Positions 31,827 to 48,124 of a DNA stretch of 64,000 nucleotides are shown one piece after another; positions within the stretch are counted from its first letter, which is position 1; every line of letters starts with the position of its first letter. Location of the stretch: NCBI RefSeq assembly GCF_024700885.2, contig NZ_CP117016.1; one strand, written 5' to 3'. This stretch comes from Escherichia coli (GTDB taxonomy: Bacteria > Pseudomonadota > Gammaproteobacteria > Enterobacterales > Enterobacteriaceae). The position numbers and the translations under genes are program-made. The notes under the pieces are model-generated. The model searched no databases and was not told the origin of the DNA. It saw only the letters and a list, made by a program, of their open reading frames with translations.

Positions 31827-31991
31827 ATGGCAAAGCCGATCATCACGCTCAATGGCCTAAAAATCGTCATTATGTTGGGAATGCTGGTCATTATTCTCTG
31901 CGGTATCCGTTTTGCCGCCGAGATCATCGTGCCGTTTATTCTCGCATTATTTATTGCTGTTATATATAACTTATTTCGCATAACACATTGA
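31827..31991 (+). pseudogene. tqsA: tqsA 5' fragment (45 native codons fused to 9 island-derived codons)
   Basis: [45 protein letters not shown] then IYNLFRITH*; the reading frame continues at 47218. Confidence 0.85.
31955..31963. repeat. attL core (tgctgttat)
   Basis: Identical 9-mer at both junctions of the interrupted tqsA frame. Confidence 0.7.
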
Positions 31992-32036
31992 TTTAATTAA
32001 ATAATTAACACCGCAAAAAGTGCCAAAAATCGCAAA

Positions 32037-32100
32037 ATGACTACACCAGTGACTACACCGTTCGGTGCACTGTATGAAACAACGTGGAACAAATAGACAC
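32037..32100 (+). repeat. left-end arm repeat (tgactacacc x2 then aacaacgtggaacaa)
   Basis: Near-identical to 47067-47135 in the same orientation. Confidence 0.7.
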
Positions 32101-32179
32101 AAGAAATATACAGGCGGATCATCTTTCCAGGGGGAAGCACACCAATTCATGAGGGGCGTTAATGTCGATATGGGGATCC

Positions 32180-32580
32180 CCACCTACCGGAATTTTTTTC
32201 CGGTTAAACGTTAATCAGGCTGGTGGGCTTTACCTGTTCGGTAGGTGTTATGATTATCGTAATACCTTTCCCCCAATGGGGTAAAAGCATCAACCGTAAC
32301 GAAAGTCGTTATGGTTGCCACTGATACCCCAAATTTGGGTATCACGAGTAAGCCCCAAAATCTGGGTGTTACTCTTACTACCCAAACTACGGGTAGTTTC
32401 CGTAGTTTCATGGTCGAGTTGCAGATCTGCAACTCCCCCATTAACCACAGGCGAATTTCCGCCTTCGGTCATTCCTTAATCATCTGCGTAATCATAATGA
32501 TTATTCAGCAAGCGCAATTTTGCGCTTTGCTTAAAGTTCAGCGAGTTACCGCGCCGACTTCCTCAAATTGAGGTTTCCGA
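32180..32580. other. palindrome-dense non-coding region (candidate packaging site or structured RNA)
   Basis: Inverted repeats read directly: cacctaccg/cggtaggtg, gatacccc-aaat-ttgggtatc, ctaccc/gggtag, ttgcagatctgcaa, gcgcaattttgcgc, cctcaaattgagg. Confidence 0.4.
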
Positions 32581-32984: not shown

Positions 32985-34646
32985 TTACACCCCGCTAAAT
33001 TCTTCCAGTTTCTGGCGGTGGCTGTCGCTTATATCAAAAGCAAAATCCTCATGCTCTGCCTGGAATGTACCAAACGCCATCAGCGCCGCCACGCTCGGGT
33101 CTATCTTGTTCGGTGATTTTTTCTTGTTCGGCTTGATATTGGCGTTCGCGTCACTCTGCATCACGACGTTACTCATCGACCAGGACAACACCGGATCGCC
33201 ACGATGCACAATCACCCTGCGGTTAACAAAAACTTCGAACGATTTCGCCGCCGGACTGAATCTGAGGTAGGTTTGCGGGAACGGCTCCACCTCAAAACCT
33301 GCCCCCTGTAATTGCGTTCTGAGATGCGTGGCGTTCCACGTATCAAAGCCCACCAGCCTGATATTAAATTTCTCCGCGTCCTGCATGATGTCATCTCTGA
33401 TCCGGTCGTAATCAATGCAGTCGCCAGGCGTTGTGCGTATCCAGCCTGCTTTAGCCCACTGACGATAGATGGCGCGGTTTTTATTGGCGGGGTTCTGTAG
33501 CTGAAATTCCGGCAGATAGTGACGGGAAACCAGCATAATGGTTTTACCGACCGGAAAGGCATAGCACACGCTGGAAATATCGCTGGTTGATGATAAGTCC
33601 AGCCCCGCGTAACACTCCTGGCCGTGTAAATCTTCCTCCGTGAACGTTCCGGCACACTCAGCCCATGCGCCGTTACCCATCCACGGGGTAGCCCCCTGGC
33701 ACCAGATATTAAATCGCTTTGTCATCATCTCCACCCACTGCGACGGAATACCCCGCGCTTTCTGGATGGTTGAGGCCAGTTTTTCACGATCGACGGAAAC
33801 ATCAATATTAGGGTTCGCCTTTATCCACATCGCCGGATCATCAACCTCGTTTTCGTCGTCCAGTTCGTAAATCAGTACAAAAATTGAATCGTTAACCTCT
33901 TCGCCGTCCAGGATCTGGCAGCAATAATCATAGTGCTGCTTACAGGCTGAAACGACGTTGCTGCCTGATGTGGTAATGGCAAATAACAGCCCTTCGGGAC
34001 GTGCGCCCATCCCCAGCTCAAGCGCGGAATAAACGCCGTTATCGGGGTGCAAGTGGTATTCGTCCACGATGGAAAGGCTGGGGTTTGTTCCCTCGATGGT
34101 TGCCGCTTTTGCTGCCAGCGGCTTTAACAGGCTGTTGCTTTTCGGGTGTATCACCTTATGCGCCTGAATATTCACCCGCCTGCGTAACGGTCGGGATAAA
34201 AGGCACATCTGACGCGCATCATCAAAGACGATCCGCGCCTGGTCACGGCTCACCGCTGCGGTGTAGATATCCTGCTGACCGTTCTCCATAATCAGAAACC
34301 AGTTAGCCAGAATCGCGGCGGTCGTGGATTTCGCATTTTTGCGCGGCACTTCGATAAAGGCGCTCGTGTATTTGCGCCGTCCGGTGGCCTTAACCTTAAA
34401 GCCGAGGATGCACGCAAAGGCGAACTGCTGCCACGGCTCCAGCTCAATGGGTCTGCCACGCATCGGTCCTTTTACGTGCGGGCACACCCTGGAAAAGGCA
34501 ATAAACCGCTCCACAACCTCACGATCGAACGTGTAAAGGGGGCTTTTAAGGTCCGAAAAGTACCGTTTAACGGCCTGTTTCAGCCGTTTACAGGCCGGAA
34601 TTTTGCCCGTTTTTACGTCTTCTGCGTACTTATTCCAGGCGGTCAA
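32985..34646 (-). CDS. terminase large subunit
   Basis: 553-aa ORF with an N-terminal ATPase-like region and a C-terminal nuclease-like acidic region typical of TerL; overlaps terS by 17 nt. Confidence 0.85.
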   Translation of the reverse strand: MTAWNKYAEDVKTGKIPACKRLKQAVKRYFSDLKSPLYTFDREVVERFIAFSRVCPHVKGPMRGRPIELEPWQQFAFACILGFKVKATGRRKYTSAFIEVPRKNAKSTTAAILANWFLIMENGQQDIYTAAVSRDQARIVFDDARQMCLLSRPLRRRVNIQAHKVIHPKSNSLLKPLAAKAATIEGTNPSLSIVDEYHLHPDNGVYSALELGMGARPEGLLFAITTSGSNVVSACKQHYDYCCQILDGEEVNDSIFVLIYELDDENEVDDPAMWIKANPNIDVSVDREKLASTIQKARGIPSQWVEMMTKRFNIWCQGATPWMGNGAWAECAGTFTEEDLHGQECYAGLDLSSTSDISSVCYAFPVGKTIMLVSRHYLPEFQLQNPANKNRAIYRQWAKAGWIRTTPGDCIDYDRIRDDIMQDAEKFNIRLVGFDTWNATHLRTQLQGAGFEVEPFPQTYLRFSPAAKSFEVFVNRRVIVHRGDPVLSWSMSNVVMQSDANANIKPNKKKSPNKIDPSVAALMAFGTFQAEHEDFAFDISDSHRQKLEEFSGV

Positions 34647-34986: not shown

Positions 34987-35108
34987 GCTTATTTTTCGTC
35001 AGATTATTTTTCAAAAAATTCCCGTGCATAAAAATTTGAGGAGGCGTTCGGTGCCCGGCGGGGTCGGGTTTGTCCTGAAAACGCCCCCCACCCCGTCATA
35101 CAGCCTCA

Positions 35109-35291
35109 TCAGCGATTGCGGAAACATTCCATAACCTCGCGGTCACGGTCGGTTAATCGCTTCGCTGTGATGCGTTCTGCGCGTCCTGACGCTTTATCTT
35201 TATGCCCTGTTTCCTGTGTCTTCCATGCGTCACGCTGCCTTATAAGTCCACGGATAAGGCGGTTTTGTTCCCGCTCATTCATCAGCGTCAT
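35109..35291 (-). CDS. possible small ORF between HNH and terS
   Basis: ~60 codons (MTLMNEREQNRLIRGL…) within the tail of a longer track ORF; could instead be non-coding cos-region DNA. Confidence 0.25.
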   Translation of the reverse strand: MTLMNEREQNRLIRGLIRQRDAWKTQETGHKDKASGRAERITAKRLTDRDREVMECFRNR

Positions 35292-39362: not shown

Positions 39363-39582
39363 GCGGCAAAAACTCAACCGTTTTTCATAAGGAAATCAGC
39401 AATCGCACCGATCGTTTTCCCGCCTGGTAATGAATATTGGCGAGAACATTAACAGGCGGAAAAGTGGCCCCAGCGTCCTGGCACCACGGGCGAGAATAAT
39501 CATGATTCAGTTCGGGTAAAATATGCCGATCCGCTCAGTGAACAACGTGGAACAACCACGAACAAATAATTTACAAAACATG

Positions 39583-44379: not shown

Positions 44380-44475
44380 AGCTACCTCGATACTTTCGCT
44401 ATCGTTGGTGGTTAGAAGCCCGGTTAGTGTTAGCGCACTGCCGGGTTTCGTCGTTTCTGCACCTTGCGCCAACAA

Positions 44476-45258: not shown

Positions 45259-45528
45259 TTAATGAACTGCCTTGCAGCTATCCTTCCAGGCCAGAACCTC
45301 GGATAAAGACCAGCCAACGGAACGACCGCCAAGTTTACGACGTGATGGGAATTGTCCGGCCTTTTCCAGGCGGTAGCGACACGTACGGCTAAGGCCGGTT
45401 AGTTTTTCGCATTCTTTTTCACGTATAAACCGATCAGTGCTTAACACTATTGCCCCCCTTTCGTTTCTTAAAGAGTCATCAGGTGTCTTATTGTGTCGTA
45501 TTGTTCCCGCTAGAGTGATGAATGGCAA
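45259..45528 (-). CDS. alpA: AlpA-family transcriptional regulator / excisionase-like
   Basis: C-terminal …LTGLSRTCRYRLEKAGQFPSRRKLGGRSVGW… HTH typical of AlpA; true start probably internal. Confidence 0.7.
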   Translation of the reverse strand: MPFITLAGTIRHNKTPDDSLRNERGAIVLSTDRFIREKECEKLTGLSRTCRYRLEKAGQFPSRRKLGGRSVGWSLSEVLAWKDSCKAVH

Positions 45529-45720: not shown

Positions 45721-45760
45721 TTGTTCGTAGTTGTTCCACATTGTTGCTCATTGTTGCACG
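45721..45760. repeat. internal copy of ACAACGTGnAACAA motif (reverse orientation) upstream of alpA
   Basis: Reverse complement reads acaacgtgcaacaatgagcaacaatgtggaacaactacgaacaa. Confidence 0.55.
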
Positions 45761-45812
45761 TTGTATCTGTTCGCATATCCAGTATGCGCATACTGAAAAA
45801 ACACGAAAAAAA

Positions 45813-47042
45813 TTATTTTCTTCTGGCTACGGGTAGCGTGGTTACGTTTTCATGTGTTCCCGCCAGTATCCCTAACCGCTCCGTCCACATATCCAGCGCA
45901 TTGCGTTTCGCATCCAGATAACGGGAATGATTATAAACTCGCTGCATTCCTGGCATCTGGTGGCCTGTAAGCTGCTCCACGACATGCGGATCAACGCCTA
46001 AATCGTTCAGCATGGTTGTAAAGGTGCGCCGGATGTCATGCAGTGACCAGTGAGGGTGATTAAGCCTCCTGTACGCTAATCTTCCATACTGCGATACGCT
46101 GGCCTCCTGTTTCACTTCCCCCAGCAATAAGCCCGTGTGCCTGTTCTGCTCCACCAGCTGCGTGACGAACGGCAGGATCGCTTCCGGTATGGGCCGGAAT
46201 ATTGCGACCTTCGTTTTGCTGTGCTCCTTCGGAACGGTCCATAGCATTTCCGTAAAATCCCACTCCCCGATCTCCGATAACCTCAGTTCTACCGTTCTGG
46301 CTCCGAAGACAATCAGGAGGCGGATTAACGCGACGTAGTAAGGGGAGAATATTTTTTTGTCCAGTGCCTGCAATAATTCGCCAAGTTCTTTGTTACTTAA
46401 GACACGTTCGCTTATATCCGGTTTTTTCCCAACGTCCGCAACGTTCAGATCGTCCAGAACGTTGCTGATTGCATAGCGCCGCCTACGGCAGAACTTAAGC
46501 GCCTGTTTGCACGCCTGTAGCACGAATCCGGCAGTAACAGGCGTTCGCTTTGCCACCTGGTCAAAACAGGCCAGCCAGTGCCGTAGCTCGCATTTATCCA
46601 GCGGCATAGCACCAATCTGCTGTATTACGTGATTATTAAGTCGCCTTTTCAGGGCGATATAATCCACGCGGTTTTCCTTTACGTAATACTCAAGCCAGTA
46701 GGTGAGCGCATCGCCAACCGTTACGGGCTTTAACGCTTCCTGTACGGTGTAATTCATCTCATGACGTGGATTTTTCCCCTCAGCCAGCCATGTGCGACAC
46801 TGTGCGGCTTTTTCCCTGGCTGCTTTCAGGCTCAGATCAGGATAACTTCCCAGCTTAATGCGTTCGGGTCGTGTCTCCCTTCCCGTTCCGGCCCTGTATG
46901 TGAAATACCAGGTCAATTTCCCTGATGTTAAATATTTCACGCTCAGGTTTCCGCCATCACTATAAAACGTGTTTTTCTCCGCTGGCTTACCATGAAGTTT
47001 CCTTAGCAAGGTATCGCTCAGTTTGTTCATTGCTCTGCTCAC
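45813..47042 (-). CDS. int: tyrosine recombinase / integrase
   Basis: 409 aa with C-terminal catalytic region (HDIRRT…RVYNHSRY); adjacent to attR. Confidence 0.9.
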   Translation of the reverse strand: MSRAMNKLSDTLLRKLHGKPAEKNTFYSDGGNLSVKYLTSGKLTWYFTYRAGTGRETRPERIKLGSYPDLSLKAAREKAAQCRTWLAEGKNPRHEMNYTVQEALKPVTVGDALTYWLEYYVKENRVDYIALKRRLNNHVIQQIGAMPLDKCELRHWLACFDQVAKRTPVTAGFVLQACKQALKFCRRRRYAISNVLDDLNVADVGKKPDISERVLSNKELGELLQALDKKIFSPYYVALIRLLIVFGARTVELRLSEIGEWDFTEMLWTVPKEHSKTKVAIFRPIPEAILPFVTQLVEQNRHTGLLLGEVKQEASVSQYGRLAYRRLNHPHWSLHDIRRTFTTMLNDLGVDPHVVEQLTGHQMPGMQRVYNHSRYLDAKRNALDMWTERLGILAGTHENVTTLPVARRK

Positions 47043-47066
47043 GTTTTACCCCCTCTTTACGAAAAA

Positions 47067-47135
47067 GTGACTACACCAGTGACTACACCGATCGTTGCAC
47101 AAAGGGCTACAACGTGAAACAAGCTGGAACAAGGA
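47067..47135 (+). repeat. right-end arm repeat (gtgactacacc x2 then acaacgtgaaacaa)
   Basis: Matches 32037-32100; lies between int and attR. Confidence 0.7.
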
Positions 47136-47217
47136 AAATCACAAATCTATTGATAATCAAAAACATAATGCACAGCCTGAAACATTATGAAACAGCAAAA
47201 AACACTAAATGATAAAA

Positions 47218-47226
47218 TGCTGTTAT
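47218..47226. repeat. attR core (tgctgttat)
   Basis: Direct repeat of 31955-31963. Confidence 0.7.
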
Positions 47227-48124
47227 TCTTAACCCGCTGGTGCAACACATGGTCCGCTGGCGTGTGCCGCGTGTACTGGCAGTGTCGATTTTGATGACCA
47301 TCATCGTGATGGCGATGGTGTTGCTGTTAGCTTATCTGGGTTCCGCACTCAACGAGTTGACGCGGACGTTACCGCAATATCGCAACTCTATTATGACGCC
47401 GCTGCAAGCTCTTGAACCGTTGTTGCAACGCGTAGGGATTGACGTCTCAGTTGACCAACTGGCGCATTACATTGATCCGAACGCGGCGATGACGTTGCTC
47501 ACCAACTTATTGACGCAGTTATCTAATGCCATGTCATCAATCTTTTTATTGCTGCTGACGGTGCTGTTTATGCTGCTCGAAGTGCCACAATTGCCCGGAA
47601 AATTTCAGCAAATGATGGCGCGTCCGGTTGAAGGGATGGCGGCGATTCAGCGTGCGATTGACAGTGTGTCTCATTATCTGGTGCTGAAAACAGCCATCAG
47701 CATCATCACCGGCCTGGTCGCCTGGGCGATGCTCGCCGCACTCGATGTTCGCTTCGCTTTTGTCTGGGGATTGCTGGCCTTTGCGCTTAATTACATCCCG
47801 AATATTGGTTCAGTTCTCGCGGCAATCCCCCCTATTGCTCAGGTACTGGTGTTTAATGGCTTCTACGAAGCGTTGCTGGTGCTGGCGGGATATCTGCTGA
47901 TTAATCTGGTCTTCGGCAATATTCTGGAGCCACGCATCATGGGGCGTGGGCTGGGGCTTTCCACATTGGTGGTATTTTTGTCGTTGATTTTTTGGGGATG
48001 GTTGTTAGGACCGGTGGGTATGCTGCTTTCCGTGCCGTTGACAATTATTGTCAAAATTGCGCTTGAACAAACAGCGGGAGGTCAAAGCATCGCCGTTCTG
48101 TTAAGCGATCTCAATAAAGAGTGA
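47218..48124 (+). pseudogene. tqsA: tqsA 3' portion, separated from its start and promoter
   Basis: In-frame continuation …[16 protein letters not shown]…; track ORF 47240-48124 (GTG start) covers the C-terminal 294 aa. Confidence 0.85.

Follow-up and report, generated by a model that had tools for sequence, protein, structure and literature searches.

The two ends of a 15,263-bp element inserted in the Escherichia coli tqsA gene carry, just inside its boundaries, similar direct repeats of about 70 bp. Judging from comparative sequence analysis, these blocks are probably the two arms of the attP site of a capsid-forming PICI (cfPICI), each holding a pair of integrase (Int) arm-type sites followed by a phased array that would be coated by AlpA. 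The analysis, conducted on a 64,000-nt stretch of E. coli DNA (the window), demonstrated the repeat itself, the boundaries of the element, the attP junction, a conserved geometry and a co-variation between motifs and proteins.

End repeats and attachment site of the tqsA element

As indicated by a repeat search (repeat family D2), the blocks at positions 32034–32109 and 47064–47139 of the window align without gaps at 76% identity. When the two 300-bp end regions were compared, the best diagonal of 76 nt contained 58 matches out of 76, as compared to 35.3 ± 1.5 matches (maximum 42) in 2000 shuffles of these regions; the longest exact word common to both blocks, TGACTACACCAGTGACTACACCG, is 23 nt long, as compared to at most 14 nt in the shuffles. 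The near-identical direct repeats of ~70 bp that a preliminary description had noticed inside both ends are hence real, and the doubt voiced there, that a careful alignment might reveal a similarity no better than chance, could be dismissed.

Each block consists of a doubled motif (TGACTACACC twice, with a 12-bp period; in full, the 22-bp TGACTACACCagTGACTACACC) and of an array of AACAA-type units spaced by 10 bp. Exact copies of TGACTACACC number four in the 64-kb window, two in tandem at each end, all on the + strand. On the far arm, i.e., the one away from int, the doubled motif (TGACTACACC-ag-TGACTACACC), a proposed Int arm-type pair, occupies positions 32038–32059 (+), while the array AACAA/AACAA/CACAA, made of proposed AlpA sites, occupies positions 32078–32102 (+). 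On the int-side arm, the same doubled motif is found at 47068–47089 (+), 26–47 nt upstream of the int start codon, and the array, as read from the sequence, comprises CACAA/TACAA/AACAA/AACAA (47098–47132, +). With the first base of the doubled motif as the reference, unit starts fall at +40/+50/+60 on each arm, the int side having one more at +30. Because this register is the same on the two arms, doubled motif and array appear to form one module of fixed internal geometry.

The preliminary description had placed both blocks correctly, but the gap of ~10 bp that it gave within them needs to be amended, since the ACAACGTGnAACAA motif starts 19 bp past the doubled motif. Its distances of 74 and 83 bp from the cores hold when taken from the outer edges of the 70-bp blocks, whereas the doubled motifs themselves lie 74 bp from the core at attL and 128 bp at attR (~89 and ~143 bp, respectively, centre to centre). 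The view that the arms lack the usual asymmetric arrangement found no support: they are asymmetric in their distance from the core, and a plan of this kind has been published for HE-PICIs (PMC10111431) and for mv4.

The longest word common to the two junctions is TGCTGTTAT, found at 31955–31963 (+; attL core, the left boundary of the element, inside tqsA) and at 47218–47226 (+; attR core, the right boundary). Joining the outer flanks yielded a 198-nt sequence, 100% identical to the intact tqsA of many E. coli genomes. Out of 5426 complete E. coli genomes, 5171 have this rebuilt empty site uninterrupted and about 250 have tqsA split there; at least 80% of the element is present in 159 genomes. 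The predicted attP junction, in the order int-side arm–TGCTGTTAT–far arm, was found in a circular metagenomic viral contig (L014, with a 119-nt terminal overlap), where it is identical to the attP rebuilt from the window at 297 of 307 positions; the blocks are therefore the two arms of attP. In the rebuilt attP the four TGACTACACC half-sites span 255 bp, and a repeat that lies on both sides of the core, differs from it in sequence and is contained within ~250 bp is what one would expect of arm-type sites.

Scans of the element with Rfam (E-value mode) and for tRNAs returned nothing at the arms, which means that the blocks belong neither to a known RNA gene nor to a tRNA-derived att site. Cos or pac sites and replication iterons were also considered and discarded: the likely cos is the HNH–terS gap (~35000–35270) and the origin would be expected after the primase gene, neither of which is at the element ends.

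Two candidate IHF sites lie between the cores and the doubled motifs. The one near attL, AATCAATGTGTTA (31981–31993, −), is an exact WATCAANNNNTTR match, 26 bp from the core, in a place comparable to that of H' in lambda; at the equivalent position (+26 to +29) in elements of three other site types, the match is exact in L027 and has one mismatch in L028 and L030, and it may be bound by IHF. The int-side site, AATCAAAAACATA (47155–47167, +), has one mismatch to the consensus and is a weaker candidate; an IHF-like site occurs at −60 to −63 from the core in the window, L027, L028 and L030. Three further 10-bp-phased AAACA units (47180, 47190 and 47200; 47180–47204, +), read from the sequence and presumably functional, adjoin the attR core. 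At that place, elements with another AlpA allele (allele B, described below) carry CGAACA twice.

The int gene (45813–47042, −) encodes a P4-type tyrosine integrase (PHROG 1; Pfam Phage_integrase) with an N-terminal arm-binding domain. Residues 4–91 match Pfam Arm-DNA-bind_3 (E = 1.1e-17) and the N-terminus matches PDB 3jtz, a CP4-like integrase N-domain (E = 1.5e-5). The start codon is probably GTG 47042, the alternative being ATG 47030: the GTG has a strong ribosome-binding site (GAGGGGG) and gives an N-terminus, VSRAMNKLSD, that matches the MSRALNKLSD of relatives. The adjacent alpA gene (45259–45447, −; 62 aa, GTG start, ribosome-binding site GGGGGG) encodes an AlpA-family excisionase/regulator (PHROG 2790 and 66) that matches PDB 8c3t, an "AlpA family phage regulatory protein" (E = 2e-6), a structure for which our literature search found no relevant paper.

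The element as a whole is, by its gene content, a cfPICI. We take the features of this class to be int, alpA and a primase gene, in addition to its own HK97-type capsid, protease, portal, connectors and terminase, with no tail genes and a length of ~15 kb; PHROG assignments and length place the element within this description. Its genes, all on the − strand between the repeats, are ordered as follows: tyrosine integrase, AlpA-type "excisionase and transcriptional regulator", small ORFs, primase, SSB, major head protein (HK97-type), prohead protease, portal, head closure/adaptor proteins, HNH endonuclease, and small and large terminase (all from PHROG). Tail genes were not found among the element ORFs scanned.

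The two pieces of tqsA, which encodes an AI-2 transporter, lie at 31827–31991 and 47240–48124, the split falling after about codon 46. In-frame stops precede the attR core, so the element gives tqsA no replacement coding end, and for this reason the gene is probably inactivated by the insertion.

Elsewhere in the element, the two arms of a perfect 18-nt inverted repeat (pair I8, ATCAGGCTGGTGGGCTTT / AAAGCCCACCAGCCTGAT; 32214–32231 and 33345–33362) are separated by 1113 nt, and the repeat encloses the small ORFs located past the terminase gene together with the 3' part of this gene. The SymR antitoxin RNA family of Rfam gave a sub-threshold match at 44380–44452 (+), with a score of 33 bits (gathering score 61; E = 0.005); the matching stretch is antisense to a 340-aa ORF that matches a repressor family over its C-terminal part. 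Either this is a chance match, or a small antisense RNA may be encoded here, comparable to the immunity RNAs that have been reported for PICI "Bro zones".

The doubled motif in related elements

Our comparison covered about 20 related elements, whose integrases are 41–100% identical. A blastn search with int and its arm led to E. coli relatives at other integration sites, of which six, occupying four sites, were taken: one at phoQ/roxA (91% nucleotide identity), one at smrA/abgR (81%), three at clpS/cspD (76%) and one, L030, at thiM/rcnR (70%). The cores of these four sites differ (AAATATGTCC, TCACGATATT, ATAACTATCAT and ATACGGGTATTTCT). The doubled motif, co-oriented on both arms and followed by phased units, is present in all seven E. 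coli elements, window included, across five integration sites, meaning that the comparison of arms between sites suggested in the preliminary description finds both components and their orientation retained.

The start-to-start spacing of the doubled motifs in attP is 233, 233, 233, 232 and 232 bp for the five E. coli site types (window included). The packaged Klebsiella cfPICI vB_KppS-Ant, inserted at the fis site and encoding an Int 50% identical, has TGTTTATACA doubled on both arms, again 233 bp apart. The co-oriented two-arm plan thus occurs in eight of eight checkable elements (the seven from E. coli and this packaged satellite), with a spacing of 232–233 bp across six sites: tqsA, phoQ/roxA, smrA/abgR, clpS/cspD, thiM/rcnR and fis. 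In L030, whose Int N-domain is 60–67% identical to the others, TGACCACACA replaces T(G/A)ACTACACC at all four half-sites; the two arms of this element are ~90% identical to each other over ~70 bp, spacer included.

A scan of one genome per species contributed 11 further integrases, with 41–57% identity. Upstream of int, at a distance of 20–45 nt, all 11 distant relatives have a doubled motif with a 12-bp period, followed by A/C-rich phased units. The sequence of the doubled motif is AGACTACACC in Serratia, TGACTACAC(C/A) in Phytobacter, Raoultella and Kosakonia, T(G/A)CCCCAC in Xenorhabdus mauleonii, TTGCAATACACA in X. innexi and X. hominickii, GCTACACA in Tolumonas, and ATGTACCCCCAT, in two to four copies, in Shewanella and Ferrimonas. 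At least seven variants occur across the 19 Int relatives and, where both arms are visible, the four half-sites change together, a correlation that has genetic linkage as its caveat.

With up to four mismatches allowed, no second doubled copy was found within the flanks searched at the 11 distant loci, which display the int-side copy only; consequently, the presence on both arms applies to the E. coli elements, L014 and vB_KppS-Ant. When the diverged arms were aligned, conservation peaked exactly on the doubled motif and on the phased units. The repeat is, on the evidence of these comparisons, functionally constrained. An IMG/VR scan with the Int alignment retrieved only relatives of at least 75% identity, most of them ending at the int start, and no new motif types.

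Some loci showed additional features. Upstream of int, L117 (Shewanella electrodiphila) has four tandem ATGTACCCCCAT units, not two. In L115 (S. decolorationis), an additional doubled motif of degenerate sequence (ATATGTACAACAATATGTACCCCA) lies past the fis terminator, outside the element, suggesting a tandem neighbour or a remnant. In two IMG/VR contigs (L006 and L026; positions 366–387), TGACTACACC is doubled directly after a fis-type terminator and is followed by GCGAAC-type phased units; these are probably the far arms of fis-site PICIs with the same arm specificity.

The recombination module (arms, int and alpA) is common to classical PICIs with lambda-like capsid/decoration genes (L027–L029) and to cfPICIs (the window and L030–L032). 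The replication genes of these same elements vary, comprising a primase, a RepA helicase or DUF927, which points to modular exchange around a conserved att/int unit.

Phased arrays, AlpA and the assignment of the two motifs

The pattern AACAA-N5-AACAA occurs eight times in the window, against 0.35 expected, and seven of the eight occurrences are inside the element, on both arms and at two internal intergenic sites, the latter being absent from the preliminary description. The eighth (61544) overlaps the start codon of a 548-aa ORF, presumably FumA as recognized from its N-terminus, and was taken as a chance match.

One internal array, AACAAcgtggAACAAccacgAACAA (39541–39565, +), lies ~215 bp upstream of the capsid gene start (39325, −), just past a terminator-like hairpin; a similar one is found in L032, and none in L027, L030 and L031. 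The other (45721–45765, −) is made of five 10-bp-phased units (TACAA and four AACAA on the − strand) between the int stop and alpA. It recurs at the same place in L027 and L028, while elements with AlpA allele B carry there a phased CGA-type array. A second 10-bp-phased set, gggAACAAtacgACACAAtaagACACC (45480–45510, −), is located 35–60 nt upstream of the alpA start, where L028 has four ACACAA-type units; the set could represent an operator of lower affinity within the leader or promoter of alpA.

Among the close relatives, we found only three combinations of Int type and AlpA type. The window, L027 and L028 share a ACTACACC-type doubled motif (Int N-domains are 74–100% identical among the ACTACACC elements), AlpA allele A (at least 90% identical among them) and GGAACAA-type units. 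L029, L031 and L032 have the ACTACACC-type motif and the same Int N-domain group, but AlpA allele B (~60% identical to A) and CGAACAA units. L030 has the TGACCACACA motif and the outlier Int N-domain, together with AlpA allele B (84–88%) and CGAACAA units. In other words, with the same doubled motif and a different AlpA allele the phased units differ (GGAACAA versus CGAACAA), whereas with the same AlpA allele and a different Int the units are kept and the doubled motif changes.

The association between units and AlpA extended to all loci possessing both an arm and alpA. Allele A accompanied G(G/A/C)xACAA-type units on 46 arms and allele B accompanied CGAACAA-rich arrays on 14, without exception in 60 arms that are, however, not phylogenetically independent. 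The unit flavour (GG or CG before AACAA) shifts with the AlpA recognition-helix variant, RTCRYR or RTTRY. In Phytobacter, Raoultella and Kosakonia, the doubled motif of the window is kept, while a B-like AlpA helix (RTTRY) accompanies (C/T)GAAC-type units. Out of 23 element ORFs, AlpA is the only one that partitions like the phased units. The alpA gene adjoins int and the helical-turn direct repeats adjoin the Int arm site, as would be expected of an excisionase array; the arrays are on both arms in seven of seven E. coli elements, rather than on one arm as in lambda and KplE1.

The Int N-domain also has residues that change in parallel with the doubled motif, e.g., LSV to LEI and FTY to FRY in L030. 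By our own assignment, these residues would fall in a region aligning to the beta-strands of the lambda Int arm-binding domain. Given the swap pattern, the tracking of alleles and the co-variation of the Int N-domain, we assign the doubled motif to Int, which is quite likely its ligand, and the phased arrays to AlpA, a pairing that we favour with more reserve. These protein–motif pairings, as well as every regulatory consequence, are inferred from sequence. The role anticipated in the preliminary description, that of arm-type sites for the integrase and/or the excisionase AlpA, is thus supported by the comparative evidence, with a partition between the two proteins. Our literature search found no published AlpA binding site or footprint for PICIs.

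The co-variation is in part a matter of shared ancestry, because attP, int and alpA form one linked module. Judging from the comparisons, linkage cannot explain the concerted change of four separated half-sites or the invariant spacing. The same two facts make it extremely improbable that the similarity of the arms is a functionless leftover of duplication or gene conversion between the element ends. Homogenization between arms does occur, as the nearly identical arms of L030 attest, but a neutral leftover is already contradicted by the comparative data: the 232–233 bp spacing is invariant at six sites with Int divergence down to 50% identity, every relative, down to 41% identity, has the motif ahead of int, and the conservation peaks of diverged arms coincide with motif and units.

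A functional reading with exchanged roles would have the AACAA units as the Int arm-type sites (like P'1–P'3 of lambda) and the doubled TGACTACACC bound by AlpA or another element protein. Lambda-type arm sites can in fact be tandem arrays spaced by about one helical turn. The study on HE-PICIs, for its part, left AlpA or another protein as a possible ligand of their doubled motif (PMC10111431). Such an exchange seems nonetheless improbable, as it is the AlpA allele that the unit flavour follows among elements with the same doubled motif and similar Int N-domains, as only an outlier Int N-domain is accompanied by a change in the doubled motif, and as arrays at two internal intergenic sites with no core nearby would suit a regulator better than an integrase. 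We also consider unlikely, though still deserving attention, that the doubled motif is the Int site while the arrays represent intrinsically curved DNA or are bound by a host nucleoid protein or by some other regulator from the satellite or a helper phage (e.g., a CII-like activator reading 10-bp-spaced repeats). A-rich units phased at 10 bp could produce static curvature, and TTGTT-N5-TTGTT resembles the lambda CII sites TTGC-N6-TTGC; moreover, alpA expression in PICIs depends, through some factor, on a helper phage, and in EcCICFT073 AlpA had no effect on the int promoter, which also counts against the AlpA reading. On the other hand, the GG versus CG flavour tracks the AlpA helix on 60 arms and in Phytobacter, Raoultella and Kosakonia, AlpA is alone among the element ORFs in partitioning this way, and a host factor would not need element-specific variants. 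We thus retain Int as the putative reader of the doubled motif and AlpA as that of the arrays.

Known attachment sites and a possible mechanism

HE-PICIs carry their doubled motif, tgTGTATTGCantgTGTATTGCa, twice in the same orientation, 81 ± 2 bp from the attP centre on one side and 132 ± 2 bp on the other; the arm domains of Int, or else AlpA, were proposed as its binders, and other PICIs were reported to lack it (PMC10111431, NAR Genom Bioinform 2023). The window shares with those elements the 12-bp tandem doubling, the co-oriented copies at unequal distances, the integrase clade and the adjacent alpA. The plan is therefore the same, but sequence and position are not: the window has TGACTACACC at ~89 and ~143 bp, instead of TGTATTGC at the above distances, and its total spacing (233 bp start to start) is 20 bp larger. 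We saw the published motif, reverse-complemented, upstream of int in the Xenorhabdus relatives L118 and L119 only. Although that motif was described as unique, analogous doubled motifs of other sequence are found here across the clade, each with a phased array after it.

The attP of phage lambda contains the Int arm-type sites P1, P2 and P'1–P'3, the Xis sites X1, X1.5 and X2, and IHF sites. As in lambda, the integrase of the element studied here is two-headed, its N-terminal domain being arm-binding; the arm sites flank the core on either side within ~240 bp, with IHF-type sites in between. On the int side, the order of Int arm site, excisionase array and core parallels the P2–X1–X2 order. 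The arm sites are two plus three in lambda and two plus two in the window, the integrase of which belongs to the P4 family. A further difference, which counts against the AlpA reading, is that the excisionase sites of lambda and KplE1 are on one arm, whereas the putative excisionase array of the window is on both arms and its motif is employed again in intergenic regions inside the element.

In P4 and KplE1, the int promoter overlaps an att arm, and Int together with the excisionase lowers int expression (PMC2951348). The two systems, P4 with Int/Vis and KplE1 with IntS/TorI, resemble the window in that int abuts the att site, so that arm and excisionase sites fall in the region upstream of int; in addition, Vis is an AlpA homologue. 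The TorI sites of KplE1 are on one arm only, unlike the arrays of the window. As for Vis, the P4 authors (Piazzolla et al., as cited in PMC2951348) suggest that it binds the int mRNA. A scan for consensus sigma-70 promoters found none in the int-side arm of the window and only a chance-level match in the far arm; int autoregulation in this element is thus a conjecture based on analogy.

Two pairs of adjacent direct-repeat arm sites, one pair per arm end, have been described for the mv4 attP (bioRxiv 10.1101/2023.11.06.565760). Unlike the window, mv4 has a Tn916-family integrase, a Gram-positive host and 11-bp sites, with no AlpA-type arrays described. In ICEMlSymR7A, IntS recognizes 10-bp arm motifs with the consensus TGKTGGTATC, distributed over five arm sites (PMC11963761). 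In our own comparison, TGGTGTAGTC, the reverse complement of the window motif, agrees with this consensus at 7 of 10 positions. The winged-helix excisionase RdfS binds attP upstream of intS as well as its own promoter, and has been modelled as a filament in which each DNA turn accommodates one protein, as in BldC-type filaments (PMC11963761). IntS is of the P4-family type, like the Int of the window; five arm sites, the position of rdfS far from intS and the nature of the element, conjugative rather than a phage satellite, set ICEMlSymR7A apart.

These comparisons suggest the following mechanism. Integration would have separated the two attP arms, each being the same composite module. The N-terminal arm-binding domains of the P4-type Int would bind the adjacent 10-bp TGACTACACC pair, four half-sites thus serving an Int tetramer. 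The AACAA-type units, three or four in number and spaced at one per helical turn, begin 19 bp beyond this pair and would be coated head to tail by the small excisionase/activator AlpA, and bending at the IHF-type sites between core and arms would bring the arm-bound Int within reach of the core. Because the int-side module immediately precedes the int start codon, expression of int might be regulated by Int and probably also by AlpA, as in P4 and KplE1. Finally, since similar phased units are found upstream of alpA and of the capsid gene, AlpA may read one DNA code for both excision and transcriptional activation; a precedent is EcCICFT073, where AlpA activates its own promoter.

Irrespective of these details, the attP described here consists of arm modules within the established scheme of heterobivalent integrases, and overturns nothing in it. 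It adds modestly, in two respects, to the literature that we reached: a doubled motif at constant spacing seems to be the rule throughout the clade, and the putative AlpA-linked arrays, set in one register on the two arms, are found again at internal regulatory regions. A generalization that we advance only tentatively, and would not yet bet on, is that the attP of P4-type/PICI integrases is a duplicated module (two Int arm sites plus a fixed-register site for an AlpA filament) with a rigid 233-bp spacing, and that AlpA reads the arms, its own promoter and the promoter of the capsid operon.

The analysis provides a testable map of the recombination site for a common E. coli satellite, with a candidate binding place for AlpA, which acts as the master activator in PICIs of Gram-negative bacteria. 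Though described as unique to helper-embedded PICIs, the "doubled motif" seems to be a design common to the whole clade, its sequence tracking the integrase. Were the clade-wide reading true, one small protein would couple satellite induction, excision and late transcription, and the rule that the motif follows the Int N-domain while the spacing is fixed would make attP sites predictable and retargetable.
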